From Acidimicrobiia bacterium UBA4744 (GTDB lineage: Bacteria; Actinomycetota; Acidimicrobiia; Spongiisociales; UBA4744), in contig DHIO01000006.1 of NCBI GenBank assembly GCA_002403855.1, positions 111,356 to 175,355 of the forward strand: a stretch of DNA of 64,000 nucleotides. Reading direction: 5' to 3'. The stretch's first letter is position 1. Each line of letters opens with the position of its first letter. The notes under the pieces are model-generated. The model was not told the DNA's origin. It saw only the letters and a program-made list of their open reading frames with translations, and did no database searches. This document shows, piece after piece, positions 20,182-39,247 of this stretch. The position numbers and the translations under genes were made by a program.

Positions 20182-20294
20182 GGGTTGAGTTTCGTTATGG
20201 CCACCGCCTGTGTCAAGCACCTCTACGCTGCGTGGCGACGGGAAGTGGATCTGCCACCGTTGAAACGGGTCCCCTAGTAGTGTGCGCTATCCGA

Positions 20295-22966: not shown

Positions 22967-23476
22967 TCACCCTTTCGAAGGAGCCGTCCGGGTCCGCTCG
23001 AAACCGAGTTCTGAGCGGGCGATTTCCTCTGCCCAGGATTCCCATGCTTCTGCTACGGGGGGCGTGAAACTCTCTCCGAAGGTGCTGGTCTCATCCACCG
23101 CCAGACCATGGATCACCACCTCCTGCGGCATCGGGATACCCAGCCTCTCACCCATCTCGAGCACTGCGCGGAACGGGAGTGTGTGGAACGACCGGTAGCC
23201 AAATCCGTGGGGTAGGTCCTCCGGCGTAGCCCGCAGGGTGGTGCCCGGCGGGAGATCCGAGGAAACGAAAGCATCGATGATGACCACGCGGTCGTAACCG
23301 CTCATGAGTGAAAGCAGATCAACGGTCGCCACGCAGGCTTCGGCGAACTCGGCCCGATCGCCCGCCAACGCTTCAACACGACGTACCGTTCGCAGGCCCA
23401 CCCCATCGTCGGACAGGATGTCATTGCCGAGCCCAAGCACCAAGGTGCGGGGCAGGGCACCTTGGTGGTCACTCAT
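22967..23476 (-). CDS. [NiFe] hydrogenase maturation endopeptidase
   Basis: LVLGLGNDILSDDGVGLRTV is the HybD/HoxW family motif. 169 aa, immediately downstream of the large subunit. Confidence 0.85.
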   Translation of the reverse strand: MSDHQGALPRTLVLGLGNDILSDDGVGLRTVRRVEALAGDRAEFAEACVATVDLLSLMSGYDRVVIIDAFVSSDLPPGTTLRATPEDLPHGFGYRSFHTLPFRAVLEMGERLGIPMPQEVVIHGLAVDETSTFGESFTPPVAEAWESWAEEIARSELGFERTRTAPSKG

Positions 23477-23484
23477 CCGACGTC

Positions 23485-24948
23485 CTAGTCGCGTACCCGG
23501 TGGGCGATGATCTCACCTCGCGGGTCGCGAACGGTCACCTCCATCGGCATCTGACCGGGCAGGGAATGAGTAGCGCACGCCATGCAGGGGTCGTACGCCC
23601 GGAACGCCATCTCGATCATGTTGAGAACCCCGTCGGAGATCTCTGCCGTCTTCTCGAGAAGACCCTTGGCCGCTTTCTTGATCGAGAGGTTGATGGCAGC
23701 GTTGTTGTTGGTGGTCCCGACGATCAAGTTGACGGCGGTGAGGATCCCATCCTCATCGGTCTTGTAGTGATGGATGAGGGTCCCTCTGGGAGCCTCCACC
23801 ACCCCTACCCCTTCGTCGGGGGTCTCCGTTGGAAGGGTCCGAATGTCGGGGTTGGTGATCTCCGGATCGCGCGCCAGGGCGTAAGCGGTTTCGGCCGCGT
23901 TCACCAGCTCGATGACGCGAGCCCAGTGGTAGGCCAGTGTGAAATGGACGGGCCGTCCACCCAGGGTGTCCATCATCCGCTCGTACTGTTCCTGGGCAAG
24001 CGGCGTCGACATTCCGTCGGCGACGTTCAATCTCGCCAGGGGAGCAGCCCGATAGACCCCGCTATCTTGGCCGTCGGTCATTCCGCTCCAGCCGCGTGCC
24101 TTGAGGTATGGAACCTTGAGGTACGTCCAAGGCTCAACTCGCTCTTCGACGTGATCGAGGTATTCATTGGGTCGAAACCGGGCTATCTCGGCGCCTTCCG
24201 TATCCACGATTCGGATGTGACCGTCGTAGTAGTCGGGCTGGTTGTCCTCATTTACGAGGCCCATGTAGTGGGTTTCGTGCCGGAAGGTGTCGCCGGTGAT
24301 CAAGTCGACATACGCAGGATTCGCCAGGACGACGTCCTCCAGGATCTTCACCGTGAACTTGCCGAATTCCACCAACTCGGCGGTGATTTCCTCAGCCGTC
24401 TGCCGTTCGTCTTCGGATAAGCCGCGGGTGACGCCGCCGGGCAGGGAGGTCACCTGGTGAATGGAACGCCCCCCGAGCAGCTTGATGAGCTCCTGAGCGC
24501 GAGCGCGACTCTTGATAACCGTCTTACCGGTTTCGATGCCAACCTTCTGGATCAACCCGAAGATATTGCGTTCCGCCACTGGTGCGGTGGGACCCACCAC
24601 GAAGTCGGGACCACCGAGGATGTAGAAATGGACCGAGTGGTCGGCGACGAAGAACGTGTTGTAGAGCAGACGGCGGAGTTTCTTGGCGGTCTCCGGCGGA
24701 TCGACGTGGTAGACCGCGTCGGCTGCCTTGGCGCTGGCCATGTGGTGGGCCTCAGGGCATACCCCGCAGATGCGGGTCGTGATGCGCGGCAGCTCCTCCA
24801 CCGGCCGGCCGACGCAGAACTCCTCGAAGCCTCGCAGCTCGGGGATGCGCAGGTAGGCATTGTCCACGTGCCCGTCGTCGTCCATGAAGATATCGATCCG
24901 GCCGTGGCCCTCCAGGCGGGTGATCGGGTCGATGGAGATCGTCTTCAT
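23485..24948 (-). CDS. mvhA: [NiFe] hydrogenase large subunit, group 3 (MvhA-like)
   Basis: Start MKTISIDPITRLEGHG. The N-terminal Ni-binding motif is RICGVCPEAH and the C-terminal motif is DPCMACATH. About 487 aa, preceded by a GGGAGGG RBS. The long ORF extension above 24948 overlaps the small-subunit gene and is not coding. Confidence 0.9.
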   Translation of the reverse strand: MKTISIDPITRLEGHGRIDIFMDDDGHVDNAYLRIPELRGFEEFCVGRPVEELPRITTRICGVCPEAHHMASAKAADAVYHVDPPETAKKLRRLLYNTFFVADHSVHFYILGGPDFVVGPTAPVAERNIFGLIQKVGIETGKTVIKSRARAQELIKLLGGRSIHQVTSLPGGVTRGLSEDERQTAEEITAELVEFGKFTVKILEDVVLANPAYVDLITGDTFRHETHYMGLVNEDNQPDYYDGHIRIVDTEGAEIARFRPNEYLDHVEERVEPWTYLKVPYLKARGWSGMTDGQDSGVYRAAPLARLNVADGMSTPLAQEQYERMMDTLGGRPVHFTLAYHWARVIELVNAAETAYALARDPEITNPDIRTLPTETPDEGVGVVEAPRGTLIHHYKTDEDGILTAVNLIVGTTNNNAAINLSIKKAAKGLLEKTAEISDGVLNMIEMAFRAYDPCMACATHSLPGQMPMEVTVRDPRGEIIAHRVRD

Positions 24949-25934
24949 GGTTGAACCCTCCCGAAGGTGGAGTGCGGCAGGCTGAATCTGTGGAACGTTC
25001 CCACGGGATCGGCGATCTGGTCGAGAATCGCTTGGATTTCGGTCGCTTCGGTGGCGTCGACAACCGAGGCGAGAGCCGACATCATGTTGAGGCCTTGATC
25101 CCGCACGTTGGGAGGCGGGCCGTAGCAACCCCGGCAGGGGCTGCCGGCACCGACACAGAGCCCTCCGCAACCGGACCGGGTGGCGGGGCCCATGCACACG
25201 ATGCCCTGATCGAGCAGGCACAGCTCGGGATCGGCGATGATCTGATGGGGCCGGACGAACTCCTTGATCCGCTTCTCTTCCCGGGTGCGCAAACACTCCT
25301 CGCAGACTGTCTGGTCCCCGGCGCCGATCACGGCTCCCGGTGGCGGCAACGGCCCCCCCGAGACGATCAACTCGATGACCTCCCAAATGCGATGCGCCTC
25401 GGGTGGGCACCCCGGAATGAAGTAATCGACGTCGACCACCTGATCGAGAGTCTTGACCGACTCGAAGAATGTGGGAAGCGACACCTGCCCTTCCGGTAAG
25501 TCCCAAATGGTCTGGGGCTCGACTCGATCTGGATTCACAGTTGAAGGCGACGCGTGATATGCGGCGTTGAAGATCGCCTCCTTGGTAGTGGCGTTGGCCA
25601 GCCCGGGAATGCAGCCTTCCATGGCGCAGGACCCGAAGGCAACCAGAGTCTTGGACTTCTCCCTGAGGACCTGGGCCAGGTGCTCGTTCTCCGAGGTTCT
25701 GATGGCGCCGTTGAACAAGCACAAATCGATGCTGTCCGGTTCCATGCCTTCCACATCGGCGTACTTGACGTCCATGGCCACCGGCCAGAAGACCAGGTCG
25801 AAGTTGGCCGGTACCTCGAGCACCTTCTCATGGAGTTCGAGGATGGCGATCTCGCAGCCGCCACAGCTGGCCGCCCAGTACAGCGCCAGCTTGGGCTTGG
25901 TGGCCGTCTGCCCGGCGACGTCCTGCATGGTCAT
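24945..25934 (-). CDS. mvhG: [NiFe] hydrogenase small subunit, group 3 (MvhG-like)
   Basis: ALYWAASCGGCEIAIL proximal-cluster motif, CMGPATRSGCGGLCVGAGSPCRGCYGP distal-cluster motif, and a ferredoxin-like C-terminus. 329 aa. There is a 4-nt overlap with the large-subunit start. Confidence 0.85.
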   Translation of the reverse strand: MTMQDVAGQTATKPKLALYWAASCGGCEIAILELHEKVLEVPANFDLVFWPVAMDVKYADVEGMEPDSIDLCLFNGAIRTSENEHLAQVLREKSKTLVAFGSCAMEGCIPGLANATTKEAIFNAAYHASPSTVNPDRVEPQTIWDLPEGQVSLPTFFESVKTLDQVVDVDYFIPGCPPEAHRIWEVIELIVSGGPLPPPGAVIGAGDQTVCEECLRTREEKRIKEFVRPHQIIADPELCLLDQGIVCMGPATRSGCGGLCVGAGSPCRGCYGPPPNVRDQGLNMMSALASVVDATEATEIQAILDQIADPVGTFHRFSLPHSTFGRVQP

Positions 25935-25962: not shown

Positions 25963-26379
25963 TCATTGCTTCAGCTCCAACGGTCCTAGCTCGCGGATCC
26001 TGTTCTCCATCTCCCAGCTCACCTTGCTGTACTTGTCGCCTTCAGATGCCGAGATCCATTCCAGCCGGAGACGTTCTTCGTCGATACCGAACCCACCGAG
26101 CAGCTTCTTCATCATCAGCGTTCGGCGCAGGCATAGGTAGTTGCCCTCTGAGTAGTGGCAATCGCCGGGGTGGCAGCCGGCCAGCAAGACACCGTCGGCG
26201 CCGGATTTGAGCGCGGTGAAGACGAAACCGGGGTCGATCCTCCCCGAGCACATAACCCGGATCGGGCGGAGGGTGGGCGACGACTGTATGCGCGATACAC
26301 CGGCCAGATCGGCACCCGAGTAGGCGCACCAATTGCACAAGAATCCAACGATCTTGGGATTGAATCCGTTCTCCGGCAT
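25963..26379 (-). CDS. mvhD: MvhD-like hydrogenase iron-sulfur subunit (Hdr/Mvh electron-transfer adaptor)
   Basis: The internal start MPENGFNPKIVGFLCNWCAYSGADLAG...RVMCSGRIDPGFV is the MvhD signature. A GGAGGA RBS lies upstream, and the gene begins 11 nt after the hdrA stop. Confidence 0.8.
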   Translation of the reverse strand: MPENGFNPKIVGFLCNWCAYSGADLAGVSRIQSSPTLRPIRVMCSGRIDPGFVFTALKSGADGVLLAGCHPGDCHYSEGNYLCLRRTLMMKKLLGGFGIDEERLRLEWISASEGDKYSKVSWEMENRIRELGPLELKQ

Positions 26380-26389
26380 AGGTTTCCTC

Positions 26390-29300
26390 CTAGACGGCCA
26401 GCAGGCCGCCGATCTCCGCGTAGATCTGTTGGTCGGTGAATCCTGCACCGACGATGGCCGAGGCCGGGCAAGCGGCCACACAGATGCCGCAGCCCTTGCA
26501 CAAGGCCTCTTCGACCCGAGCCACCTTCTTGTCCTCGACCCAGGAGATGGCGTTGTACGGGCAGAGGGCGTTGCACACCCGGCATCCGCCACACAACTCC
26601 TCCTGCACTTCGGCTTTGATCGGATCGATCGTCATCTCGCCCCGGGCCATCCATCCCAGCATCTTCGACGCCGCCGCCGAAGCTTGGGCGACGGTGTCGG
26701 GGATGTCCTTCGGTCCCTGGGCGCAGCCGGCTATGTAGATCCCGTCGCTGGCCGTGCCGATGGGGTCTAGTTTCGGGTGTCGCTCCAGGAGGAACCCGTC
26801 GGCGCTCTGGCTGAGGTGCAGCAGCTGGCGAAGCTCTTCGGAACCGTCGCTCGGCACCATGGCCGGGCAAAGGATCACCAGGTCGACCGGGACCTCGCGC
26901 CGTACTCCCAGCAGGGTGTCTTCGGCTTTCACCAGCAGTTTCCCCGGACTTCCCTCGGGAGCTTCGATCACCTCGGCCACCTTGCCGCGCACCATCGTGG
27001 TGCCCTCGTCCATGATGCGGGTGTAGAACTCTTCATAGCCTTTCCCGAAGGCCCGCATGTCGATGTAGAACTGGTAGACCTCGGCCTCGGTCCTCTCCCG
27101 CACGAGATGGGCGAATTTGAGTGCATACATGCAGCACACCCGGGAGCAGTAGCGGTTGTAGTTCTCGTCCCGGGAACCGACGCAGTGGAGGATCGCCACC
27201 GAGCGGGGTGCCTCCCCGTCGATCAAGACCTTGCCGTCCGTCGGTCCGGTAGAGGAGAGCATCCGTTCGAACTCGAGACCGGTTATCACGTTCTCCAAAC
27301 GCCCGTAGCCGTACTGAGGAATGACGCTCGGGTCGAACTGCTTGTAGCCGGTGGAGACCATGATCTGACCCACGTCGAGATGGTCCACCTCGTCCTTCAT
27401 GGAGTGATCAACGGCACCGGGCTTGCAGGCATCGACACACTGGTAGCAGTCGACGCATACTCCACAGTGCAGACAGCGCTGTGCCTCGGCCACGGCCTGC
27501 TCTTCGGTGAAACCGAGTTCGACCTCGTCCCAACCGCCGATTCTTGTTTCAGCCTCCAGCTTGGGCATCTGAGTGCGGGGCACTCTCTCGATCTCTTCAT
27601 ATGGTTTTGAGTACCGGTGCGGTCGGCCCTCGACCCGGGGAATCTCGGCCGGCACCTGATGCGTTTCGAAGCCCTCGAGAGGTTGTCCGCGTAGGTACTT
27701 GTCGATTGCCTCAGCGGCTCGTTTTCCGGCTCCCATAGCGGCGACGACAGTCGCCGGTCCCGATACGGCATCGCCGCCGGCGAAAACACCGGGGAGGTTG
27801 GTGGCAAAGGTCTCCGCGTCGACGTCCAACGTTCCCCACGGGGAAAGCTGCATCTCTCCGGCGCCGGGGTCGTCTTCGAGGTAGTCGAGATCGGCGCGCT
27901 GCCCAATGGAGGCAACCACCATGTCGAAGCCCAGGTCGTGCTCCGACCCCTCGATGGGGATCGGTCGGCGCCTGCCCGTATCGTCTGGTTCCCCGAGCTC
28001 CATCTCGATGACCCGGAGGCCGGTGACTTTGCCGTCCTTGCCGAGCACTTCGACCGGTGCCCGGAGGAACAGGAAGCGAATGCCCTCGGTCTCGGCATCG
28101 ATGGCTTCGTGCTCCTCGCAAGGCATTTCCACCCGGGTACGCCGGTAGACCACCGTGACCTCTTCGGCGCCTTCCCGCAAGATCGTGCGGGCCACGTCGA
28201 TTCCGCAGTTGCCGCCCCCGATCACCGCCACCTTCCGGCCCACAGGCTGCGATTCTCCTAGTGCTTTGTTGTGGAGGAACTGCACGGCGTCCACCACTCC
28301 GTCGAGGTCCTCGCCCGGCACGTGCATGGCGATACCGCGATGCGCCCCGGTAGCGACGAAGATCGCTCCGTACCCGGTTTCCCGGAGTTGCTCGAGCGTG
28401 ACGTCACGTCCGAAGGCGACGCCGGTTTGAAACTCGACACCCATGCGACGGATGAAGTCGATGTCCTGTTGCAGCTGCTCGCGAGGCAGGCGGTAGGCCG
28501 GGATGCCGAGGGCGAGCATACCTCCCAAGACTTCTTCCCGTTCGTAGACGGTGGACTGGTAGCCGCGTTGCGCCAGATTGTGGGCACAGGCCAGACCGGC
28601 CGGGCCACTTCCCACGATCGCGACTTTCTCGCTGTGGCGGACCGGCGGTTCGGGGACCTTGACCTCGCCGTTGTGCTGAGCCTCCCAGTCCAGGGCGAAC
28701 CGTTTGAGGTGCTGGATGGCGATCGGCTCTTCCACGAAGCCGCGGTTGCACTGTTCTTCGCACGGGTGGTAGCAGACCCGCCCGCATACCACGGGCAGCG
28801 GGTTGGATTTGCGGATCAGTTGGGCCGCCTCGGCGAATCGCCCGTCACCGATGAGAGCCACATATCCGGCTGCCTCTTGGCCGATCGGGCAGGCCGACCA
28901 ACAAGGTGGGCGTTCGTCCTTTTCGATGAGATAGCTGTTGGGGATCGCTTGTGGGAAGGTCTTGTGGATAGCTGTGCGCGACGCCATGCCCATGTCGAAG
29001 ATGCTGGGCACTGTGACCGGACACACTGCGATGCAGTCCTGGCACGAGGTGCACGCGTCGGTGACGTAACGGGCCCGCTTGCGTACTCGAACTCGGAAGT
29101 TGCCGGCATAGCCGGAGACCTCCTCGATGTCGGACATGGAGAGGATCTGAACATTCTCAGTTTGGGCAACCGAGACCATCTTGGGGGTCAGGATGCAGGA
29201 CGAGCAGTCCAGGGTTGGGAAGGTCTTGTCGAAACGAGCCATGTTGCCGCCGATGGTCGAGTCCCGCTCCACGAGGTAGACCTGGTTGCCCCCCTGGGCC

Positions 29301-29794
29301 AGGTCGAGAGCGGCCTGGATGCCGGCGATCCCGGCCCCGATGACCATCGTGTCCGGGTAGATGGGAGCCTCGGAGGCGAACAGAGGCTCCTGGTGAACGA
29401 CCCGCTCGATGGCGGCATTGCAGAGGGCTATCGCCTTGCCGGTTGCCGCCGCCGGATCGGAGTGGATCCACGCGCAGTGCTCCCGCACGTTGACCATCTG
29501 GAAGAGGTACGGGTTGAGTCCGGTGCGACCTACCGCCCCGCGGAAGGTGAGCTCATGCATCATGGGTGAGCAGGCGGCCACCACCACCCGATCGAGCCCC
29601 TGCTCACGAATGTCCTGCTCGATGAGATCTTGTCCGGGTTCCGAACACATGAACTGGTAGTTGCGGGACACAGACACGCCCGGCAGGCCGGATACGTAGT
29701 CGGAGACCTCGTCCACGTTCACCGTGCCGGCGATGTTCGTACCGCAGTGGCACACGTAGAAGCCGACCTTTGGTTTTCCTTCGTCACTCATCAC
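26390..29794 (-). CDS. hdrA: HdrA-like flavoprotein (CoB-CoM heterodisulfide reductase subunit A family) carrying an inserted GltD/NfnB/SudA-like NAD(P)H-binding module
   Basis: 1134 aa. N-terminus KVGFYVCHCGTNIAG and the FAD site MVIGAGIAGIQAALDLAQ match HdrA. Residues about 330-700 carry a GltD-like Fe-S region (VCGRVCYHPCEEQCNRG) plus two Rossmann folds (KVAIVGSGPAGLACAH, KVAVIGGGNCGIDVA). The C-terminal half contains several CxxCxxCxxxCP ferredoxin motifs, as in HdrA. Confidence 0.8.
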   Translation of the reverse strand: MMSDEGKPKVGFYVCHCGTNIAGTVNVDEVSDYVSGLPGVSVSRNYQFMCSEPGQDLIEQDIREQGLDRVVVAACSPMMHELTFRGAVGRTGLNPYLFQMVNVREHCAWIHSDPAAATGKAIALCNAAIERVVHQEPLFASEAPIYPDTMVIGAGIAGIQAALDLAQGGNQVYLVERDSTIGGNMARFDKTFPTLDCSSCILTPKMVSVAQTENVQILSMSDIEEVSGYAGNFRVRVRKRARYVTDACTSCQDCIAVCPVTVPSIFDMGMASRTAIHKTFPQAIPNSYLIEKDERPPCWSACPIGQEAAGYVALIGDGRFAEAAQLIRKSNPLPVVCGRVCYHPCEEQCNRGFVEEPIAIQHLKRFALDWEAQHNGEVKVPEPPVRHSEKVAIVGSGPAGLACAHNLAQRGYQSTVYEREEVLGGMLALGIPAYRLPREQLQQDIDFIRRMGVEFQTGVAFGRDVTLEQLRETGYGAIFVATGAHRGIAMHVPGEDLDGVVDAVQFLHNKALGESQPVGRKVAVIGGGNCGIDVARTILREGAEEVTVVYRRTRVEMPCEEHEAIDAETEGIRFLFLRAPVEVLGKDGKVTGLRVIEMELGEPDDTGRRRPIPIEGSEHDLGFDMVVASIGQRADLDYLEDDPGAGEMQLSPWGTLDVDAETFATNLPGVFAGGDAVSGPATVVAAMGAGKRAAEAIDKYLRGQPLEGFETHQVPAEIPRVEGRPHRYSKPYEEIERVPRTQMPKLEAETRIGGWDEVELGFTEEQAVAEAQRCLHCGVCVDCYQCVDACKPGAVDHSMKDEVDHLDVGQIMVSTGYKQFDPSVIPQYGYGRLENVITGLEFERMLSSTGPTDGKVLIDGEAPRSVAILHCVGSRDENYNRYCSRVCCMYALKFAHLVRERTEAEVYQFYIDMRAFGKGYEEFYTRIMDEGTTMVRGKVAEVIEAPEGSPGKLLVKAEDTLLGVRREVPVDLVILCPAMVPSDGSEELRQLLHLSQSADGFLLERHPKLDPIGTASDGIYIAGCAQGPKDIPDTVAQASAAASKMLGWMARGEMTIDPIKAEVQEELCGGCRVCNALCPYNAISWVEDKKVARVEEALCKGCGICVAACPASAIVGAGFTDQQIYAEIGGLLAV

Positions 29795-29955
29795 AGGCTC
29801 CAGTCAGTGTGTCGCTCGTTGTCGAAGGGGTCGATCATTGCGGGGAAGGGCGGGGGAGTGCCGATAGGGGAAGACAGCCGCTTCCGGCTGGTTGATGACG
29901 CTCCGGCGTGGTGCCGGCGCCGCGAAGATCCAAGCATCTCGCGTAGTGACTCCCT

Positions 29956-29971
29956 TGTGAATCCATTCACA
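29956..29971. promoter_or_regulatory. perfect CRP-type palindrome TGTGAatccatTCACA upstream of hdrA
   Basis: Exact match to the TGTGA-N6-TCACA consensus. It sits in the 242-bp intergenic gap between the etfD-like gene and hdrA, about 165 bp upstream of the hdrA start. Confidence 0.45.
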
Positions 29972-30036
29972 ATGATGGTGGTCGTCTCCCCGGCTTGCCA
30001 GGGCCAAAAGGCTCTCCCTGGGGACTTCAAGACCCA

Positions 30037-32031
30037 TCACAAGGCCTCGGCCACCAGTTCGATGAGGTCTTTGACGGCCAGACGATCCGCGTAGCCGCCG
30101 CTCTTGGCGGCGTCCTCGAACATCACCAGGTCCTTGGGGCAGGAGACGATCAGCATTTCCACCCCCTCCAAACCGGCGGCTTCTTCGACTCTCATGGCGG
30201 CCGGGCGTTGTTGGGTGTCTCCCTCTTCCATCCAGATGCGACCTCCTCCCGCTCCACAGCACATCGCCCGATCACCATGGCGGGGCATCTCGACGAGTGT
30301 GCATCCGGCTGCTTCGATGACCCTGCGCGGCGCGTCGTACACGCCGTTGTAGCGACCGAGGTAGCACGGGTCGTGGTACGTGACCCGGTATCCCAGCTCC
30401 CGGCCTAGTCGCAGACGGCCGTCGGCGATCAACTGATCCAGCAGCTCCGAGTAGTGCAGTACCGGTCGCCCGCCGTTGATCTCCGCCGGGTATTCGTTCT
30501 TGAGGGCGTTGTAGGTATGGGGATCGGTGGTGACGATGCTCCGGAATTCGCAGGCGTTCAGAGCCGCAGCGTTGTCCTCGGCGAGCATCTCGAACAAGCC
30601 CTCTTCCCCGACCCGCCGCACATCGTTGCCGGCATTGCGTTCCGCCTCGTAGAGCAGTCCAAAATCGAGATCGGCACGGCGAAAGACCTCTGCGGTCGTC
30701 TTGGTGGCACTGGCCAACGTGGCGCTGTATGCGGCATAGTCGCCCGTGAACCAGAGGTAGTCCACGGGTTCCCGCCGGGCATCCTTGATCTTCTCCGGCA
30801 GGCCTTTGGTCCATTTGGCACGCGCCCGCTCCGACTGGCCGAACGAATTGCCGTAACGACCCAGATTGGCCATCGCTTCCTGGAGCATCCCGTCCATCCG
30901 CCCTTCCATCACGAGGTGGCGCCGCATGTCGACGATCGGCGTAACGTGCTCGATGAAGAGCGGACACTCCTGATCGCAGGCGGAGCAGGTGACGCAGGCC
31001 CAGAGGATTTCTTCGGTGATGACGTCGCCGACGAGCTCGCTCTCGAGCACGGCCCCGTTCTGCTGTCCATCACGGAGCGCTACTCCCCGCTGAATCAGGT
31101 TGTCGCGGAGGGACATGATGAGCAGCTTGGGAGAAAGGGGCGACCCGCTGGCGTAGGCGGGACACACGTCCTGACACCGACCGCATTCGGTACAGGTGTA
31201 GAAGTCGAGCAACTGGCGCCGGCGGAACTGTTCTACTGCGTTCACGCCCACGTCGCCATTGAATTCCGGTGCCGGCGGCAAGCGGCCGGGCGGGTCCAGG
31301 TTTCGCAAGAAGACGGCGGGGATCGAGGTGACCACATGAAAGTGTTTGCCCCCCGGAAGCTCGGTGAGGAAGGCGAGCACCACGATCAGGTGGATCCAGT
31401 AGGCGGCCTCTTCGACCACTTCCAACGTCGGGTCGCTGAGGCCCGACAGCACGGCACCCACGGCCGAGGCCACCGGTCGCCAGTCGGCCAGAGGATCCTC
31501 GCCGAGTTCGATGCGGATCCCATTGATCACCAGCAGGCTCACCACGATGGTCAAGATGAACGACAGGACCATCACCGCCTGGGCCCGGTGGCTTCCCTCG
31601 TAGCGGGGCGGATTGACGACCAGGCGAAGGTAGAGGGCGTACACGACGGCGATCCCTACGAGAGCAGCAAACAGATCTTGGAGGAGAGCCAACGGACCGA
31701 ATTCGCCGATCACCGGGATCACGAACCCGGGGTCGGCGAAGGCCACGAGTCCTTCGATGATCGCCTGCAAGATCGTCAGGATCAGGATGACGAAGCCCCA
31801 GAAGACGAAGAAGTGGGCGATACCCGGCGCCAGGAAGCGGAACAGGCGCAGTTGGCCTCCCACATACACGACCAGCCCCTTGATTCGCTCGATCCACCGG
31901 CCGTAAGGCGGTCCCGGTCGACCGCGTTGTAGGTTCACCCACAAGAGTTGATAGACCCGCAGGCCGAAGACGGCGAAGGAAACCACCAGGAGAAGGACGA
32001 CGACGATGGACTTGACCGCTTCGTACTCCAT
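30037..32031 (-). CDS. membrane-anchored Fe-S oxidoreductase: NarI-like di-heme cytochrome b domain fused to an HdrD-like 4Fe-4S/CCG domain (EtfD / DsrMK-HdrED-like)
   Basis: 664 aa. The N-terminus has five hydrophobic helices with conserved His (HFFVFWGF, YWIHLIV, HFHVV). Then come CTECGRCQDVCP and CVTCSACDQECP, and C-terminal CCG motifs (PCYLGR, MCCGAGGG). Confidence 0.8.
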   Translation of the reverse strand: MEYEAVKSIVVVLLLVVSFAVFGLRVYQLLWVNLQRGRPGPPYGRWIERIKGLVVYVGGQLRLFRFLAPGIAHFFVFWGFVILILTILQAIIEGLVAFADPGFVIPVIGEFGPLALLQDLFAALVGIAVVYALYLRLVVNPPRYEGSHRAQAVMVLSFILTIVVSLLVINGIRIELGEDPLADWRPVASAVGAVLSGLSDPTLEVVEEAAYWIHLIVVLAFLTELPGGKHFHVVTSIPAVFLRNLDPPGRLPPAPEFNGDVGVNAVEQFRRRQLLDFYTCTECGRCQDVCPAYASGSPLSPKLLIMSLRDNLIQRGVALRDGQQNGAVLESELVGDVITEEILWACVTCSACDQECPLFIEHVTPIVDMRRHLVMEGRMDGMLQEAMANLGRYGNSFGQSERARAKWTKGLPEKIKDARREPVDYLWFTGDYAAYSATLASATKTTAEVFRRADLDFGLLYEAERNAGNDVRRVGEEGLFEMLAEDNAAALNACEFRSIVTTDPHTYNALKNEYPAEINGGRPVLHYSELLDQLIADGRLRLGRELGYRVTYHDPCYLGRYNGVYDAPRRVIEAAGCTLVEMPRHGDRAMCCGAGGGRIWMEEGDTQQRPAAMRVEEAAGLEGVEMLIVSCPKDLVMFEDAAKSGGYADRLAVKDLIELVAEAL

Positions 32032-32047
32032 CTCGGCTGCCTGTTCC

Positions 32048-33022
32048 CTACCCTCCTTTGGCTGCTCGCACCCGTTCGATCAGCACCGGCAGAAGGTCGA
32101 GCAAGTCGACTTCCGATCCGTACTGGGCGACGTCGAAGATCGGCGCTTCCGGGTCGGTATTGACGGCGATCGTCAAATCACTGTCGCTCATCCCCTCGAC
32201 GTGCTCAGGGGCTCCGCTGATACCCAGGGCCAGATAGACGTCGGGTTTGACCCGCTTCCCGGACTTGCCGACCATGCGCGTGGTGGGGAGCCAGCCTTGA
32301 TCTACGACCGGGCGGGACGCACAGACTGCGCCACCAAGCGTCTCGGCTAGTTCCTCGGCTAGCTCCACGTTGTCTTCGTTGGCTATGCCACGTCCGATCG
32401 CCACCAGGATGGGAGTGGTGGAGATGTCGATGTCCTCCGCCTTGGGCTCTTGATACCCCGCAAAGGCGACCCGTCCGCTTCCCAGCGGCGAAACGGAGGT
32501 TCTGGTCACCTCCGGCGCGGTTTCCCCCCTTCCTTGTTCCGGCTTGTAGCCGCCCGGCACCATGGTGATCAGGGCGTTTGGTTCGGGAATGTCGCCTTCG
32601 ACGAGGATCTTCCCACCGCAGATCTGGCTGATGAATCGCAGCCTGCCGTTCGCCGCGTCGACACTCCGACACCGGCTCACCAGCGGCATGCTCAGGCGGG
32701 CGGACAGAACCCCGGCTACCTCGGCTCCCATCGATGTGTCGCCGAAGAGCACGCAGCGGGGCGGATCGCCTCCGATCAAATCCGCCAGGATGACGTTGTA
32801 GTGCTCCGGGTTGAAGTCGGCAAGGGCGGGGTCGTCGATGTACACAACTCGATCTGCCGCCAGATCACCGGCCAGGGTCTCGCCGTCATGACCGAGCAAC
32901 ACGGCCGCGACGCCACCACCGGTTCCGGTAGCCAGCCGGCGGGCGGCGGCCACTGCCACGTAGGTGATGTCCGCGACTTGCCCCCGCAGGTGCTCGACGA
33001 TGACGTGTATGTCTTGGCTCAT
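32048..33022 (-). CDS. etfA: electron transfer flavoprotein alpha subunit
   Basis: 324 aa. Contains the C-terminal FAD-binding region PDVYLALGISGAPEHVEGM (ALGISGA...H) typical of EtfA/FixB. Confidence 0.85.
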   Translation of the reverse strand: MSQDIHVIVEHLRGQVADITYVAVAAARRLATGTGGGVAAVLLGHDGETLAGDLAADRVVYIDDPALADFNPEHYNVILADLIGGDPPRCVLFGDTSMGAEVAGVLSARLSMPLVSRCRSVDAANGRLRFISQICGGKILVEGDIPEPNALITMVPGGYKPEQGRGETAPEVTRTSVSPLGSGRVAFAGYQEPKAEDIDISTTPILVAIGRGIANEDNVELAEELAETLGGAVCASRPVVDQGWLPTTRMVGKSGKRVKPDVYLALGISGAPEHVEGMSDSDLTIAVNTDPEAPIFDVAQYGSEVDLLDLLPVLIERVRAAKGG

Positions 33023-33031
33023 CGTTCCCCC

Positions 33032-33799
33032 TCACGCCTTCCCCAGCTCTCGGAGGAGATCGACGATCCTCCCCGCGACCTCATCCTCATCGCCGGTGAT
33101 CATGGTCGCCCGTTCGGCGGTCTCCGGCTTGAACATCGAATCGACCATCGGTCCTCCGGTGGTATCAAGATCCGGTGCCGCCTGCTCGTCGACGGCGGCC
33201 GTCTTCATCGCCTGACGGATTCGGCTGATGGCGACGTAGCGGGGTGGCGATTCCGCTGCTTGAACCCCGAGCACTGCCGGCATCTCGACGTCCATCTCGG
33301 CGATCAGACCGCCCGGGTATTCCTTGCGGACCCGGCATCGACCGTTGATAGGAGCGATCCCCGACACGTAACCCACGTAGGGCATACCGACGTATTCGGC
33401 GAGCAGCGGACCCAGTGACCCATCCAGATCGTTGTGGGCCTGTACACCTACCAGCACCAGATCTGGCTCGAGGATTCGAACGGTGGTGGCGTAGAACCGC
33501 GCCATGGCATGATTGTTGACATTGACCCCGTAGTCGACTCCGGTCAGCTTGATGAGCCGGTCGACCCCTTTGGCCGATGAGGCAAACAGGACATCATCGA
33601 CTCCCTCGCCGTCCAGGCTGATAACCGATACCGTCCCGGAGAGGCTCTCCTTGAGTAGGAGAGCCTGTTCGAGGGCGTGCTCATCGACCTCGTTGAGAAT
33701 GAATCGGAGCCAGGTCGTGTCGAGGGCCGTCCCGCCGTCATCGATCTCCAGTTCTTCAACCAGGTCGGGAACGAGCTTGACCGGTACCACGATGTTCAT
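33032..33799 (-). CDS. etfB: electron transfer flavoprotein beta subunit
   Basis: MNIVVPVKLVPD N-terminus typical of EtfB/FixA, in a 255-aa protein. Confidence 0.85.
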   Translation of the reverse strand: MNIVVPVKLVPDLVEELEIDDGGTALDTTWLRFILNEVDEHALEQALLLKESLSGTVSVISLDGEGVDDVLFASSAKGVDRLIKLTGVDYGVNVNNHAMARFYATTVRILEPDLVLVGVQAHNDLDGSLGPLLAEYVGMPYVGYVSGIAPINGRCRVRKEYPGGLIAEMDVEMPAVLGVQAAESPPRYVAISRIRQAMKTAAVDEQAAPDLDTTGGPMVDSMFKPETAERATMITGDEDEVAGRIVDLLRELGKA

Positions 33800-33803
33800 G
33801 ACT

Positions 33804-35024
33804 TCACCCCTGCTCGATCAATGAATCCACCAACAACTCGGCAATGTCCTTGACCACGAGGTGCTTGGCCCCTGTCACCGTCTTGGTGGCATCCTCGAAA
33901 CGAGGCATCTCGTAAGGACAGGTCACGGCCAGGATGTCGGCCCGGACGTCGATGGCTTCCTGCACTCGAATCTCGGACAACCGGAAGTGAGCCTTCTCCC
34001 ACCGGAAACCGTCGAGCCACATCCCACCCCCCCCTCCACCGCAGCAGATGCTGGTTTCCCGGGTGTGCAACATTTCTACCAATTCGACTCCGGGAACAGC
34101 GGTCAGCAACCGCCGGGGATCCTCGTAGATGCCGTTGGCCCGTCCCAGATAGCAGGGATCGTGGAAAGCCACCCGGGCCGGGATCTCTCGAGTGAGCAAG
34201 GGTTGGAGCCGATCGAGCCGCCCTGCCAGGAATTGGCTGTAGTGGGCCACCGGGTAGGAGATACCCAACGCCGGGTACTCGTTCTTGAGAGCGTTGAACG
34301 CGTGAGGATCGGTGGTCAGGATTTCTTCGAATTCGTACTTGCCGAATGCCCTGGCGTTCTTCTCGGCCAGCATCTCGAACAGCCCCGTCTCACCCGCCAG
34401 GCGTTGAGAATCCCCGTCGCTGTTCTCTTCAGGGCCGAGTATGCCGTAGTCGACGTCGAGGCGGTTGAGAACCCTGGCCAGCGCTTGTGAAGCTTGGCGG
34501 CCGCGCGGATGGTACGAGGCGTAGTCGCCCACGAACCAAAGGACTTCCACCGGGCGCTTGATCTTGCTGAGGATGGGGACCGCGGGTTCGATGTCCATCG
34601 CCCAATCGGCGCGCCGCCGCGGTGGCTCACCGAGGGCGTTTCCATAGCGCTGCGAGTTCTCGAGGGCTTCCTGGAGTTCGGCGGGGATGCTGCCGGTCAA
34701 CAGCATTTCCTCCTTGGCCCGGGTCATCAGGCCGTTGGTGAGGGGGATCTGCGCCGGACAAATCTGTGCACAGGCGTAGCAGGAAACACAGAGCCAGAGC
34801 GAGTCGACTCCCATCACCTTTTCGAACATCCCCGCTCGCATGGCGGAGATCATCTTGTGGGGAGGGAAATCCATCAAGTAGCCAAACGGACAGATGCCGC
34901 TACACGCGGCACACTGCAGGCAAGCGCGAATTCGCCGGCCCTCTTCCACTTCTTCCAGGCTGAGACTGAATGAATCCGTGAAGCCGGCCGCGTCGGCGGC
35001 CTCCATCGCCGGTGCTGCCATCAT
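33804..35024 (-). CDS. soluble HdrD/GlcF-like Fe-S oxidoreductase (two 4Fe-4S motifs plus two CCG domains)
   Basis: CLQCAACSGICP, CVSCYACAQICP, PCYLGR and ICCGGGGGG motifs. The start is taken at the ATGATG at 35024, 5 nt after GAAAGGTG. The ORF extends to 35048 with a TTG. Confidence 0.75.
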   Translation of the reverse strand: MMAAPAMEAADAAGFTDSFSLSLEEVEEGRRIRACLQCAACSGICPFGYLMDFPPHKMISAMRAGMFEKVMGVDSLWLCVSCYACAQICPAQIPLTNGLMTRAKEEMLLTGSIPAELQEALENSQRYGNALGEPPRRRADWAMDIEPAVPILSKIKRPVEVLWFVGDYASYHPRGRQASQALARVLNRLDVDYGILGPEENSDGDSQRLAGETGLFEMLAEKNARAFGKYEFEEILTTDPHAFNALKNEYPALGISYPVAHYSQFLAGRLDRLQPLLTREIPARVAFHDPCYLGRANGIYEDPRRLLTAVPGVELVEMLHTRETSICCGGGGGGMWLDGFRWEKAHFRLSEIRVQEAIDVRADILAVTCPYEMPRFEDATKTVTGAKHLVVKDIAELLVDSLIEQG

Positions 35025-35192
35025 TCGCACCTTTCTGTCGATAGTCAATCCGTCCTATGTCGCGCCTCGCCACCCTCGAGTTCTGTGACGGTCAGGGATG
35101 GCCTCATGGACGTAAGTGTCTTGCGTGACGGGGCGGTATCCAACCTCTCCACAACGACTCCAGGACCTTCCTTCGGAGTATGCGGTCGTTCT

Positions 35193-35216
35193 TGTGAATT
35201 CTTTCACTAGAGTGAA
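35193..35216. promoter_or_regulatory. CRP/FNR-type operator candidate in the divergent promoter region: TGTGAattcttTCAC overlapping the perfect palindrome TTCACtagaGTGAA
   Basis: Read directly from the sequence. 14 of 16 positions match TGTGA-N6-TCACA. Centred about 160 bp from both divergent start codons (35024 and 35358). Confidence 0.4.
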
Positions 35217-35357
35217 CGGGGTGGCTAGGGTCAAAAGACTCAACCTGCCGGAGGTCGAGGCCGGCAGCTACGCAAGACCTCACCACGGTGACGGCCCTGT
35301 GGGGCGCGCAGCACGGGCGTTGCGACCGGCCCACGCCGGCCTGAGGTCGGGATCGGT

Positions 35358-37082
35358 GTGAACCACGAGCCCCTCACCATCATGTGTGCTGCCGCAGTTT
35401 GTGCCGACCTGCTCCGGTTGCGCGACACCCTCGAGAAGCTCTACGGAGAGTCGGCTCGCGTGGAGGCTCACCACAGTGGGGAAGGCTTGTGCCACGCGTT
35501 AGAGGCCCATCTCGCCTGTGGAGATCTCGTTCCCGTGGTGGTCGTCGACTGCCGGCTGGCCGACGGTACGGGAGCCGACGCCCTCGTTGATCTCGCCGAT
35601 CGCGATGCCAGCGGTGCCACCCGCAAGGTCCTCATTCTCGCTGATGATGAGACCGCCGAGACGGATCGAATCCTGGCGAAAGTGGCGCTCGATGGTGTCC
35701 TCACCCGGCCATGGACCATCCACGAGTTGCGGACTACCGTCGAGCGACTCGTCGATGAATACCTCAGAGAGGTAGACCCCGAGGCGGATAGAAGATTCGC
35801 TGCGTTCACTATGGGTCCCACCGGTTCCACCGAGCGTGACGCGCAACGCACTGGGGGAGACCTCCTGCAACGTTTCGATGAGCAGGTTCGGCGCGACCGA
35901 GCCAAACAACGAAGCTTCCTCGAGGATCGCGATCTCAGAGACAACGAAGTCGAACAGGCAATGATCGATGAGATGGAGCGGGTCCTCGGGTATCCCCCGC
36001 GGAAACGACTGCCGGCCGGAAGCCTGATCCTGACTGAAGGCGAATCGATCGATGGAATCACTGTGGTTTTGGACGGCGAGGTTCGCTTGTTCCGGGAGGT
36101 GGACGGCCGGGAGATCGTGTTTCACCATCTCACCGCCGGGCGAATTATCGGGTTGATGTCGCTAGCTCAATCACGCCCGGCAGTTTTCAATGTCGAGGCC
36201 GAAACAGAAGTCACCGTGATGCCGGTCACGCTGGAGCAACTCGATTCGGCGTTGCGAGCCAGTCCCAGCCTGTCCGCACACTTCGTGTCTGTCTTGGTGA
36301 GATCATTGGCGCGACGCAATCTGCGCAGCATCGAACAACAGCTGCAAATCCGAGAGTTCGCCACGAGCCGGATCAAGGAATCGGAGCGGCTGGCGGTGGT
36401 GGGTCAACTAGCTGCCGGAGTGGCTCACGAGTTGAACAACCCTTTGCAGGGAATCGTCGCCTATTCCCACTTGCTGTTGGAGAAGCACGCCGAAGACGGA
36501 CGCCACCGATCATCTCTGGAGAAGATCGTCGCCCAGGCCGATCGATGTATCGCCATCGTGAGGGCTCTGCTCGATTTCTCGCGTCCGACCGCGCCGAAGA
36601 AGCAATCCTCTGACGTGAACTCGCTGCTGACCGACTGCATAGAGCTGGTCGAGGAACAAGCTCTCTTTCTCAACATCGCGATCGACCGGGACTTGGAACC
36701 GACCTTGCCGCTGGTCATGGTCGATCCATCGCAGATACAGCAGGTGTTCGTCAACTTGATCATCAATGCGGCCGAAGCGATGGACGGCGACGGACGCCTG
36801 GAGATAACCACTCGCCATATGGATAGCGAGGTCGAGATCGAGTTCACGGACAGTGGACCGGGGATCAACCCCGAAGACTTGGACCGGGTGTTCGACCCAT
36901 TCTTCTCGACCAAGGAGGCAGGCCATGGGACGGGTTTGGGCCTGGCGATCAGTTACGGGATAGTCCGCGAGCACGGAGGTCGCATCACTGCGGCGAGCGA
37001 GGAAGTAGCGGGAGCAACATTTGTCGTTCGGCTCCCGATTACGGTCGATCGGCCCTGGAGCAACAACATGGAGCAGGAGTAG
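35358..37082 (+). CDS. cytoplasmic sensor histidine kinase with N-terminal receiver-like domain and a cyclic-nucleotide-binding (CAP-effector) domain
   Basis: 574 aa with no TM segments. Contains a cNMP-binding-like region (LILTEGESIDGITVVLDGEVRLFREVDGREIVFHHLTAGRIIGLMSL), a HisKA H-box (AAGVAHELNNPLQGIV), and HATPase N/G boxes (NLIINAAEA, DSGPGI, GTGLGLAIS). Confidence 0.8.
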   Translation: MNHEPLTIMCAAAVCADLLRLRDTLEKLYGESARVEAHHSGEGLCHALEAHLACGDLVPVVVVDCRLADGTGADALVDLADRDASGATRKVLILADDETAETDRILAKVALDGVLTRPWTIHELRTTVERLVDEYLREVDPEADRRFAAFTMGPTGSTERDAQRTGGDLLQRFDEQVRRDRAKQRSFLEDRDLRDNEVEQAMIDEMERVLGYPPRKRLPAGSLILTEGESIDGITVVLDGEVRLFREVDGREIVFHHLTAGRIIGLMSLAQSRPAVFNVEAETEVTVMPVTLEQLDSALRASPSLSAHFVSVLVRSLARRNLRSIEQQLQIREFATSRIKESERLAVVGQLAAGVAHELNNPLQGIVAYSHLLLEKHAEDGRHRSSLEKIVAQADRCIAIVRALLDFSRPTAPKKQSSDVNSLLTDCIELVEEQALFLNIAIDRDLEPTLPLVMVDPSQIQQVFVNLIINAAEAMDGDGRLEITTRHMDSEVEIEFTDSGPGINPEDLDRVFDPFFSTKEAGHGTGLGLAISYGIVREHGGRITAASEEVAGATFVVRLPITVDRPWSNNMEQE

Positions 37083-37086
37083 CTTG

Positions 37087-38232
37087 ATGGCTATGGCACT
37101 CGAGGATGGTCGCTCGAGGATCCTCATCATCGACGATGAGCAGGTGGTGCTCGAATCCTGCATAGAGATCTTGCTCGACCAGCCCTACGACGTCGCCACC
37201 GCGTCCAGCGGCGCTCGCGGTCTGGAATTCATGGAGGAATTCCGGCCCGATCTGGTGTTCGTGGACTTGAAGATGCCCGGCCTCTCCGGCCTGGAAGTCC
37301 TCGAAGCTATCAACCGGGATGACCCGACAGTCGTGACGGTGGTCATCACCGGGTACGCCACCGTGGACTCGGCGATCGAGGCCATGAAGCTAGGAGCGTA
37401 CGATTTCATCCCCAAGCCGTTTACGCCCGACCAGTTCCGGGTGATCACCGCACGCAGTCTGGAAAAGCGCAAGCTCGTTCTCGAGACGATCGCGCTACGC
37501 CGTGAAAAGGAGATGCTTCGGGAGAACTTCGCCGCGATCGTTAGCCATGAGCTGAAATCACCGCTGAGTGCCGTTCAGCAGAATCTCTTCGTCTTGGCAC
37601 ATCAACTCTCTCCCGTCACTACCGAGGACCAGCGAGTGCAACTCGAGCGCATGAAGTCACGGATCGGTGATCTTCTGGACCTAGTGGATCGATGGTTGCG
37701 CAGCGTCTCGGTCGACCTGGACGGCATCCGAGAACGATTCGAGACCCTGCCTCTCTCTGTTCCGATCACCAAGGCAGTCGAGTCCGTGCAACCCCAAGCC
37801 GTTCGCAAAGACGTCGAGATCGTCGTACAAGAACGCGCCGGGAGTGTCTACGGCCACGAAGGGGTTCTTACCGAAGCCCTGACCAACATCATCGGCAATG
37901 CGGTGAAGTACTCGTATGAGGGCGGCACCGTCACCATCACGACGAAGCAACTCGACGACCGAGTCAGGGTCGATGTGACGGATACCGGAGTGGGTATTTC
38001 GGAAGACGACCGAGTTCACATCTTCGATGACTTCTACCGAGGGGACGTCGGCATGAGCCGCCAGAGCGGCGCCGGACTCGGGCTGGCCATCAGTCGGAGG
38101 ATCATTGAGGCCCACAACGGATCCGTGTCGGTCGAGAGCGAGTTGGGGAGAGGCACCACCTTCACCATCCTCCTTCCCACCGAGGCCCCTGAGCCTCCCG
38201 TTTCACGTTTACCTGAGAGGAGCGAGATCTAA
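37087..38232 (+). CDS. hybrid response regulator-histidine kinase (N-terminal receiver, then HisKA and HATPase)
   Basis: Receiver domain (RILIIDDEQ...LVFVDLKMPGLSG...AYDFIPKPF), H-box IVSHELKSPL, and HATPase (NIIGNAVKYS, DTGVGI, GAGLGLAISRRI). The start is 5 nt after the upstream kinase stop. Confidence 0.8.
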   Translation: MAMALEDGRSRILIIDDEQVVLESCIEILLDQPYDVATASSGARGLEFMEEFRPDLVFVDLKMPGLSGLEVLEAINRDDPTVVTVVITGYATVDSAIEAMKLGAYDFIPKPFTPDQFRVITARSLEKRKLVLETIALRREKEMLRENFAAIVSHELKSPLSAVQQNLFVLAHQLSPVTTEDQRVQLERMKSRIGDLLDLVDRWLRSVSVDLDGIRERFETLPLSVPITKAVESVQPQAVRKDVEIVVQERAGSVYGHEGVLTEALTNIIGNAVKYSYEGGTVTITTKQLDDRVRVDVTDTGVGISEDDRVHIFDDFYRGDVGMSRQSGAGLGLAISRRIIEAHNGSVSVESELGRGTTFTILLPTEAPEPPVSRLPERSEI

Positions 38233-38248
38233 TGCAGGGAGGAATCCC

Positions 38249-38674
38249 ATGAACCCGACGAAACGGCTACTCATCGTCGACGACGATCCAGACTTCGCCG
38301 GTGCGATCAGCGAGATCCTCGAATCGGCCGGCTACGAGACGGACATAACGCACAACCCCAAGGAGGGATGGGCGGCGCTCAAGACGAACAAGTACGACCT
38401 TCTCCTGCTGGACATCATGATGGGTCGGGGCGCCGAGGGTGTGATGATGGCCCGTAAGATCCGCAAGGATGAATCGTTGCGCGAGATGCCGGTGCTCATC
38501 ATCACCGGTTTGCGCGAGCAGATTGCTTTTCTCTTCCCGGGCCAAGCCATCCATCCGGGATTCGTGCCGGTCGACGAATTGGTCGAGAAGCCGGTGGAGC
38601 CTGAACTTCTTCTCGACCGGGTTGGTGCGCTGATCGAAGCCTCCGAGGCGCGATCGCCGGGGGGTGATGAGTAA
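38249..38674 (+). CDS. single-domain response regulator (CheY-like receiver)
   Basis: MNPTKRLLIVDDDPDF...YDLLLLDIMMGRG...KIRK, 141 aa, with a GCAGGGAGG RBS upstream. Confidence 0.8.
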   Translation: MNPTKRLLIVDDDPDFAGAISEILESAGYETDITHNPKEGWAALKTNKYDLLLLDIMMGRGAEGVMMARKIRKDESLREMPVLIITGLREQIAFLFPGQAIHPGFVPVDELVEKPVEPELLLDRVGALIEASEARSPGGDE

Positions 38675-39247
38675 GTGTTTCCTGCCACGACTTCACCCCA
38701 ATTCAGCATGGAAGTCATGAACCTTCTCTACGCAGGCGACGGGAAACCGCCGAACCTCTGCGTGCATTGTTCGGTCTGCTCGGCTACCTGCCCGGCTGTG
38801 GAGTTCATGGACCACTCCCCGCGCATGCTCTTGGCCATGATCAACGCCGGGATGAAGGACGAGGTGCTTGCCAGCAACACGTTCTGGACTTGTGCCTCGT
38901 GCTTTGCCTGCTCGGAGCGGTGTCCCCAAGGGATACACGTAGCCCAGATCATGTATGCACTGAAGCGTTACTCGCTGTGGCACAACCGGTACCCGGAAGG
39001 GTTGGTTGGGCCCGATTTCTCACGGCGTTTCGTGAAGACCATCCTTGCCAACGGAAAGTCGTACGAGCCCGGCTACGCCCCTGCCTTTATCTGGGAGGGG
39101 GGGCTTCCGGGGCTTCTGTACGAGATGCTGGGAGCCGTCAAGCTATTGCGGCGCGGGCGACTCCAGTTGATTCCCAAGAAGATCAAACGCGTGGACAACT
39201 TCCGCCAGATGATCGGGCGGATCATACCCCTGGAGGGTATCTCGTGA
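38675..39247 (+). CDS. hdrC: heterodisulfide reductase subunit C-like (two 4Fe-4S motifs)
   Basis: CVHCSVCSATCP and CASCFACSERCP motifs in a protein of about 190 aa. The GTG start lies directly after the response-regulator stop, preceded by GGGGTGATGAG. Confidence 0.75.
   Translation: MFPATTSPQFSMEVMNLLYAGDGKPPNLCVHCSVCSATCPAVEFMDHSPRMLLAMINAGMKDEVLASNTFWTCASCFACSERCPQGIHVAQIMYALKRYSLWHNRYPEGLVGPDFSRRFVKTILANGKSYEPGYAPAFIWEGGLPGLLYEMLGAVKLLRRGRLQLIPKKIKRVDNFRQMIGRIIPLEGIS

Follow-up and report, generated by a model that had tools for sequence, protein, structure and literature searches.

Predicted Rex-type operators and a companion motif at an Hdr-Mvh-Etf gene module of an uncultured Acidimicrobiia bacterium

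Gene clusters for HdrA-MvhADG (group 3c-type) occur widely among bacteria, their function has been described as unknown (PMC5317091), and the locus analyzed here raises the question of which signal controls such a cluster. It lies within a 64,000-nucleotide stretch of contig DHIO01000006.1 (positions 111,356 to 175,355) from Acidimicrobiia bacterium UBA4744, hereafter the window, which has a G+C content of 63%. A run of minus-strand genes leads from an hdrD-like gene through etfB, etfA and a gene for a membrane EtfD/HdrD-like protein to an hdrA fusion gene, mvhD, mvhG, mvhA and a maturation protease gene (Table 1), with successive spacers of 4, 9, 16, 245, 10, 28, −4, and 8 bp. The sole sizeable gap of this arm separates the EtfD-like gene from hdrA and measures 242 bp (GTG start at 29794) or 245 bp (ATG at 29791). 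The first-pass annotation of this DNA had singled out the gap in an otherwise packed operon, a perfect TGTGA-N6-TCACA palindrome inside it and a second near-consensus site in a divergent regulatory region, and had taken them, together with a cyclic-nucleotide-binding (cNMP) domain in the adjacent sensor kinase, as signs of a regulated internal hdrA promoter under cAMP/CRP control. Each of these features was borne out by our analysis; the regulator that they indicate is probably a different one.

Apart from the palindrome at 29956–29971, TGTGAATCCATTCACA, the window contains no exact TGTGA-N6-TCACA; dinucleotide shuffles gave an expected count of 0.01 on average, and the palindrome is a real, non-random site. 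Its symmetry extends to a perfect 18-bp palindrome, TTGTGAATCCATTCACAA, which fully matches the consensus TTGTGAANNNNTTCACAA of operators bound by the regulator Rex. This consensus was demonstrated as the Rex operator of the actinobacterium Streptomyces avermitilis by electrophoretic mobility shift assay and footprinting (PMC5355995), and it is also the generalized cross-phylum Rex consensus of Ravcheev et al. (2012), as that work is quoted in PMC5317091. With up to one mismatch allowed, TTGTGAANNNNTTCACAA occurred at exactly two sites in the window and in none of 100 shuffles. The second of these, TTGTGAATTCTTTCACTA, has one mismatch and is the near-consensus site noticed earlier; its place is the divergent region flanked by the minus-strand hdrD-like/etf operon and a plus-strand histidine-kinase operon. 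Both boxes are intergenic and, 5.2 kb apart, bracket one gene module, with the center of the proximal box ~172 nt upstream of the hdrA ATG (the box itself at ~160–180 nt). We consider it likely that the two boxes are Rex operators placing an NAD(P)H-linked Hdr-Mvh-Etf module under NADH/NAD+ control, and that the site in front of hdrA marks a retained internal promoter.

The closest genomic relatives of the HdrA fusion came from Acidimicrobiia/Actinomycetota metagenome-assembled genomes (73–91% identity). Both boxes were found at orthologous positions and in the same gene order in four related loci, L162 (94%), L058 (91%), L001 (78%), and L163 (78%), all of which have a perfect box at the distal position. 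A box at the proximal position, perfect or with one mismatch, is present in these four as well as in L015, L168, L164/L165, and L166. Loci L164, L165, and L166 (75–77%) are without etf genes, and hdrA is there the first gene after a divergent pair encoding an extracytoplasmic-function (ECF) sigma factor and an Ada-like protein; a perfect box is nevertheless kept ~135–160 nt upstream of the hdrA ATG. This assigns the box to the promoter region of hdrA itself and supports an internal promoter in the window, whose lineage would have kept that region behind an etf operon that was inserted or lies adjacent.

Sixteen sites from GC-rich Actinomycetota loci, a set that mixes orthologous and paralogous sites from Acidimicrobiia/Actinomycetota relatives, were conserved at all 14 arm positions, with counts of T16 T15 G16 T16 G16 A16 A14 in the left arm and T16 T16 C16 A16 C16 A15 A16 in the right. 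The same sites have 13 different 4-bp spacers and variable flanks, and the intergenic DNA around the boxes aligns at ~60% identity only. With the arms nearly invariant and the spacer and flanks variable, selection acts on exactly the 7-bp Rex arms. When 1.38 Mb of sequence, intergenic and coding DNA pooled, was searched with the CRP core alone, 11 perfect cores were recovered, all of them 0.1–6 kb upstream of an HdrA-fusion gene and nearly all also carrying the extra Rex-specific bases. A further 0.9 Mb of metagenome loci, mostly from relatives at 56–60% identity, gave the same picture.

The association extends beyond this lineage. An operon with the order rubrerythrin-hdrC-hdrB-hdrA-mvhDGA-protease was found in Actinomycetota (L002 and L069), Zixibacteria RBG-1 (L057), Ignavibacteria (L006), and Latescibacterota (L018), and in all five loci a Rex-type box stands before the first gene, a recurrence that spans four phyla. 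The three FCB-group loci (L057, L006, and L018) have strong, recognizable sigma-70 promoters, TTGACG-17-TATATT, TTGACA-18-TATATT, and TTGACA-17-CATATT, with 10–11 of 12 consensus matches, and the box begins 3–5 nt after the −10 hexamer. Judged by these predicted promoters, the box in three of the four phyla lies across the start site, where an operator for a repressor is expected, and not in the position of a class I or class II CRP activator.

Dimeric Rex combines a winged-helix DNA-binding domain with a Rossmann fold and, according to the literature cited here, binds TTGTGAA-N4-TTCACAA at low values of the NADH/NAD+ ratio and releases it as NADH accumulates. We infer that Rex is the protein bound at the window's boxes and that it acts there as a repressor. 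From the distal operator it would repress the hdrD-like, etfB, etfA, and EtfD-like genes, and may also act on the divergent operon that runs from the kinase gene to hdrC and hdrB, while from the proximal operator it would repress the unit formed by the hdrA-nfnB fusion, mvhD, mvhG, mvhA, and the protease gene. A rise in NADH, for example under electron-acceptor limitation, would load Rex with NADH and release it from the DNA, derepressing both units and allowing synthesis of an NAD(P)H-linked complex of Hdr, [NiFe] hydrogenase, and Etf to restore the balance of reducing equivalents.

The predicted targets belong to NAD(H)-linked redox metabolism: an HdrA with an NAD(P)-binding module, EtfAB, and the Mvh hydrogenase. 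In HdrA, the Pfam domains Fer4_20, Pyr_redox_2, FAD_oxidored, and Fer4 were recognized, with a GltD/NfnB-like NAD(P)-binding module fused to the protein. The targets fit a Rex regulon: HdrA carries this module, and for bifurcating hydrogenases as well as etf/nfn operons control by Rex has been reported or predicted (PMC6405883, PMC10084766, PMC5317091), the cases being Caldithrix, Solidesulfovibrio, Ruminococcus, and Clostridium kluyveri. Taken together, the conserved Rex-type box and the NfnB/GltD-like insertion in HdrA suggest that the complex has a part in NADH/NAD+ homeostasis. On this hypothesis, the operon would be derepressed when NADH rises and its enzyme would couple NAD(P)H with H2 and with a disulfide or ferredoxin. 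We see the main value of the locus in this testable hint at the role of bacterial group-3c-type Hdr-Mvh clusters, and in a second conserved motif that accompanies the boxes.

This second motif, a 16-bp element present in the window as GAGCCTTTTGGCCCTG and GAGTCTTTTGACCCTA and with the family consensus GGGTCTTTTGGCCCTG, stands upstream of every box in the Actinomycetota loci and always in the orientation of hdrA (besides the window, in L058, L162, L001, L163, L164, L166, L168, L002, and L069). A de novo search of 85 nt upstream of the boxes recovered it in 14 of 14 regions at 16.4 bits, vs. at most 9.8 bits in shuffled sequence, and its distance to the box was 16, 26, or 39–44 nt. Exact matches to its core, CTTTNGNCCCTR, are nearly confined to the DNA upstream of boxes, and a weight-matrix scan of the window returned only the two listed copies above 13 bits. 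The FCB-group loci with a box lack the motif. It corresponds to no known promoter element and is the part of the locus that known families leave unexplained; it may be a −35 region, an activator site, or both.

The closest resemblance is to the DosR/DevR box, whose consensus is TTSGGGACTWWAGTCCCSAA (PMC2275270). The two share a GGGnC-N4-GnCCC geometry, an AT-rich center, and a place upstream of a promoter for hypoxia-type genes, with 8–12 of 14 DosR core positions matched, and they differ in that the left arm of the motif is often GAG. We treat the resemblance as a lead, an identity with DosR sites being statistically unconvincing: the motif's 20-mer scores of 12–14 of 20 were reached in 1–17% of random 72-nt windows. 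No NarL/LuxR-type regulator was found in the window. A further DosR-like 20-mer, atgGGTCTTGAAGTCCCcag (30018–30037, minus strand, 14/20), lies just upstream of the second motif, where it overlaps the EtfD-like gene's stop codon, and could be a tandem site or a product of chance. The second motif could bind an undescribed activator, for example one that senses hypoxia or H2, or one tied to the cNMP-domain proteins that recur around these operons. A tentative extension, which we regard as possible though rather doubtful, is that the Hdr-Mvh-Etf module of these Acidimicrobiia is governed by a fixed two-element promoter design in which the Rex-type operator and the second motif form a two-input gate for NADH and a second signal.

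For the gap itself, the sequence most likely accommodates a retained internal promoter for hdrA, and we infer a transcription start within it that would leave a 5′ untranslated region of ~160 nt. A Shine-Dalgarno sequence, GGAG, lies at 29798–29801. A terminator scan of the gap detected no terminator, the T-tract type included, the gap matched no Rfam family, and its predicted RNA fold was not unusual (z = −0.77). We also considered a small protein in the gap, a 79-aa open reading frame (29791–30030) that was annotated as a gene on a related contig, and rejected it for want of conservation: in a relative whose HdrA is 94% identical, the frame reaches only 55% identity, and the other relatives lack it. 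As promoter candidates, a TGGCAA-17-CATCAT arrangement seen by eye to abut the window's box and the −10-like hexamers CATCCT and CATACT in L058 and L015 were too weak to claim.

Several results weigh against Rex as the regulator of this module. No rex gene was detected by tblastn with the Bacillus subtilis Rex query in the window or in ~170 related loci; Rex queries had been validated by Pfam, with PF06971 plus PF02629 as the Rex signature, and against PDB entries 1xcb and 3ikt. The best 120 matches listed in a search for homologs of Thermus Rex were from Deinococcota only, which makes that search uninformative on Acidimicrobiia, and we found no report of Rex in Acidimicrobiia in the literature. 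Part of the site collection had been found with the Rex 18-mer, an ascertainment bias that the core-only search mitigates and does not remove. Of the 160 hdrA-fusion loci that are more distantly related, most lack the box, and the link between box and operon is therefore lineage-specific. The 16-bp core is an equally perfect CRP-family core, with which a CRP/FNR-type protein preferring TTGTGAA arms would be compatible. Finally, a consensus scan of the gap found no sigma-70 promoter. The regulated internal promoter proposed in the first-pass annotation, with its sister site, is supported by conservation of both boxes in relatives (75–94% protein identity) and by persistence of the box in etf-less loci.

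The cyclic-nucleotide control proposed earlier would call for a regulator of the Crp/Fnr family from another part of the genome, for example a Crp/GlxR-type protein sensing cAMP and acting on the hydrogenase arm, which we think unlikely. Actinobacteria do own Crp/GlxR regulators with a TGTGA-N6-TCACA core (PMC4254451), the window's core is perfect, and in its TGTGA/TCACA half-sites and their 6-bp separation the box resembles the sites of Escherichia coli CRP and of Corynebacterium glutamicum GlxR (TGTGANNTANNTCACA). In addition, cNMP-binding domains recur around the operon. The kinase adjoining the distal box (35358–37082, plus strand) has such a domain, as the first-pass annotation stated (PF00027, E = 3e-15), and stand-alone cNMP-domain proteins are encoded at related loci. 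None of these local proteins, however, has a helix-turn-helix (HTH), no gene of the window combines a cNMP-binding with a DNA-binding domain, and tblastn with the E. coli CRP query detected no Crp/Fnr-type gene in the window or in ~170 related loci. The cNMP-domain link to the operon thus recurs, but not via a CRP-like DNA binder. The E. coli CRP consensus has an A before TGTGA and a T after it. Among the 16 Actinomycetota sites it is instead a T that precedes TGTGA in every case, an A follows it in 14, and a T stands before TCACA in all 16, the latter two being positions that a CRP-type consensus leaves free; the central TA of the GlxR consensus (PMC4254451) occurs in only two of the 16. The location of the box directly after the −10 hexamer in three phyla is likewise atypical for CRP activation. 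With the Rex 18-mer as the conserved unit, a repressor position at the FCB-group loci, and no local protein that joins cNMP and HTH domains, the assignment to cAMP/CRP was most likely wrong.

Another dimeric regulator, as yet uncharacterized, might share the TTGTGAA-N4-TTCACAA specificity and perhaps act together with a factor bound at the second motif. Both the lack of a rex gene in the window and related loci and the constant company of the second motif at Actinomycetota boxes, which Rex alone leaves partly unexplained, would agree with such a protein. We nonetheless hold it to be improbable: the site reproduces exactly a consensus that is well documented and conserved across phyla, the same box occurs at FCB-group loci without the second motif, and Rex is the simpler explanation. 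As for the view that the palindrome has no protein partner and is a chance occurrence or a structural feature (for instance, a hairpin in the transcript, a terminator, or a repeat), a perfect 18-bp palindrome can form a hairpin, and the gap offers no recognizable sigma-70 promoter. Against this, the expected count is close to zero, the arms are conserved while the spacer varies without compensatory changes, and the only two copies in the window are both at orthologous positions in relatives; nor does the gap have the T-tract terminator, Rfam match, or folding energy of such an element. We give this view next to no credence. Rex thus stays our preferred regulator, with a practical corollary for the annotation of GC-rich Gram-positive genomes: a "perfect CRP site" calls for comparison with the Rex consensus before cAMP control is concluded.

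Compared with known systems, the window's boxes are nearest to the Rex operators (ROPs) of Streptomyces coelicolor and S. avermitilis, with which they share the phylum Actinomycetota, the identical 18-bp TTGTGAANNNNTTCACAA (at zero and one mismatch), a location within 350 bp upstream of the targets, and targets in NAD(H)-linked energy metabolism. The Streptomyces targets, cydABCD, nuoA-N, rex-hemACD, and atp, belong to the aerobic respiratory chain, whereas those in the window (Hdr, an Mvh group-3c-like [NiFe] hydrogenase, and Etf) are of anaerobic type. The window further differs in coming from an uncultured lineage of Acidimicrobiia, in that its operators are predicted ones, and in the companion motif at each of its boxes; we know of no such motif described for Streptomyces ROPs. 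A second comparison group consists of Rex on Caldithrix abyssi Cabys_3675–3679, on Solidesulfovibrio Hnd, and on the Clostridium kluyveri rex-crt-bcd-etf-hbd-nfn operon (PMC5317091, PMC10084766, PMC6405883). There, as predicted here, an NADH/NAD+ sensor gates enzymes coupling NAD(P)H, ferredoxin, and H2 from a box in the operon promoter. Those operons encode [FeFe] hydrogenases or Bcd-Etf, whereas the window's target combines a [NiFe] MvhADG-type hydrogenase with an HdrA-NfnB fusion and has no adjacent rex. Our limited literature searches found no earlier description of a predicted Rex-type operator in this lineage or on a bacterial Hdr-Mvh-Etf target.

The features of the locus are collected in Table 1. 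Gene calls were taken from a public contig, Logan SRR5325130, that carries the identical protein, and domains were assigned with Pfam.

Table 1. Genes, operons, and predicted regulatory elements of the Hdr-Mvh-Etf locus (window coordinates).
Feature	Position	Strand	Basis or remark
hdrD-like gene	33804–35021	−	Pfam and public gene calls
etfB	33032–33799	−	Pfam and public gene calls
etfA	32048–33022	−	Pfam and public gene calls
Gene for membrane EtfD/HdrD-like protein	30037–32031	−	Pfam and public gene calls
Gene for HdrA fusion (1133 aa)	26390–29791	−	Pfam; first gene 3′ of the proximal operator
mvhD	25963–26379	−	Pfam and public gene calls
mvhG	24945–25934	−	Pfam and public gene calls
mvhA, [NiFe] large subunit	23485–24948	−	Pfam and public gene calls
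Maturation protease gene, HycI-type	22967–23476	−	Pfam and public gene calls
Upstream operon under the distal operator: hdrD-like, etfB, etfA, membrane EtfD/HdrD-like	30037–35021	−	
Divergent operon: cNMP-domain histidine kinase, hybrid kinase/receiver, receiver-only response regulator, hdrC, hdrB	35358–40149	+	
Predicted proximal Rex-type operator, TTGTGAATCCATTCACAA	29955–29972	unstranded	Perfect 18-bp palindrome, 0 mismatches
Predicted distal Rex-type operator, TTGTGAATTCTTTCACTA	35192–35209	unstranded	1 mismatch
Second motif, GAGCCTTTTGGCCCTG	29999–30014	−	Ends 26 nt upstream of the proximal box
Second motif, further copy, GAGTCTTTTGACCCTA	35226–35241	−	Ends 16 nt upstream of the distal box; hdrD-like/etf orientation
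Non-coding gap with putative internal promoter and ~160-nt 5′ untranslated region	29792–30036	−	

The divergent two-component system was considered as the source of the DNA-binding factor and rejected, none of its three proteins having a DNA-binding domain; nor was such a domain found in any other protein of that operon. In L163 (921–1496), L164 (6156–6719), and L166 (5102–5671), all at 75–78% identity, the divergent place of this cNMP-kinase system is occupied by the ECF sigma factor paired with the Ada-like methyltransferase. The stand-alone cNMP-domain protein (155–164 aa, no HTH) adjoins the protease gene in L162 (14097–14591) and L167 (210–674), and homologs were found in at least 10 other hdrA-mvh loci (L130, L030, L007, L152, L133, L036, L108, L110, L032, and L037). 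It is absent from the window, where the cNMP domain is fused to the adjacent histidine kinase.

Full-length homologs of the HdrA fusion (~1130 aa) are spread over many phyla, and its architecture was also seen in Ignavibacteria, Zixibacteria, Calditrichia, Aminicenantes, Latescibacterota, Chloroflexota, and Actinomycetota. One metagenome locus, L092, has two tandem Rex-type boxes, TTGTGAATTAGTTCACTA and TTGTGATTTTAATCACAA (4593–4643), 14 nt apart and following a TTGACA promoter. In the window, hdrC and hdrB (38717–40149, plus strand) stand apart from hdrA at the 3′ end of the divergent kinase/receiver operon, adjoining mraZ and the dcw cluster. The order rubrerythrin-hdrC-hdrB-hdrA is intact in the five loci with the rubrerythrin operon, and in two of them, L002 and L069, that operon adjoins mraZ; the separation in the window looks like the outcome of a local inversion or insertion through which the etf-hdrD genes arrived together with the two-component system. 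Just past a Usp gene that follows the hydrogenase operon on its downstream side, genes for a small resolvase-domain protein and an HNH endonuclease (19669–20810) form a pair that is also present in the 94% relative L162 (15509–16654) and may be the remnant of a mobile element.

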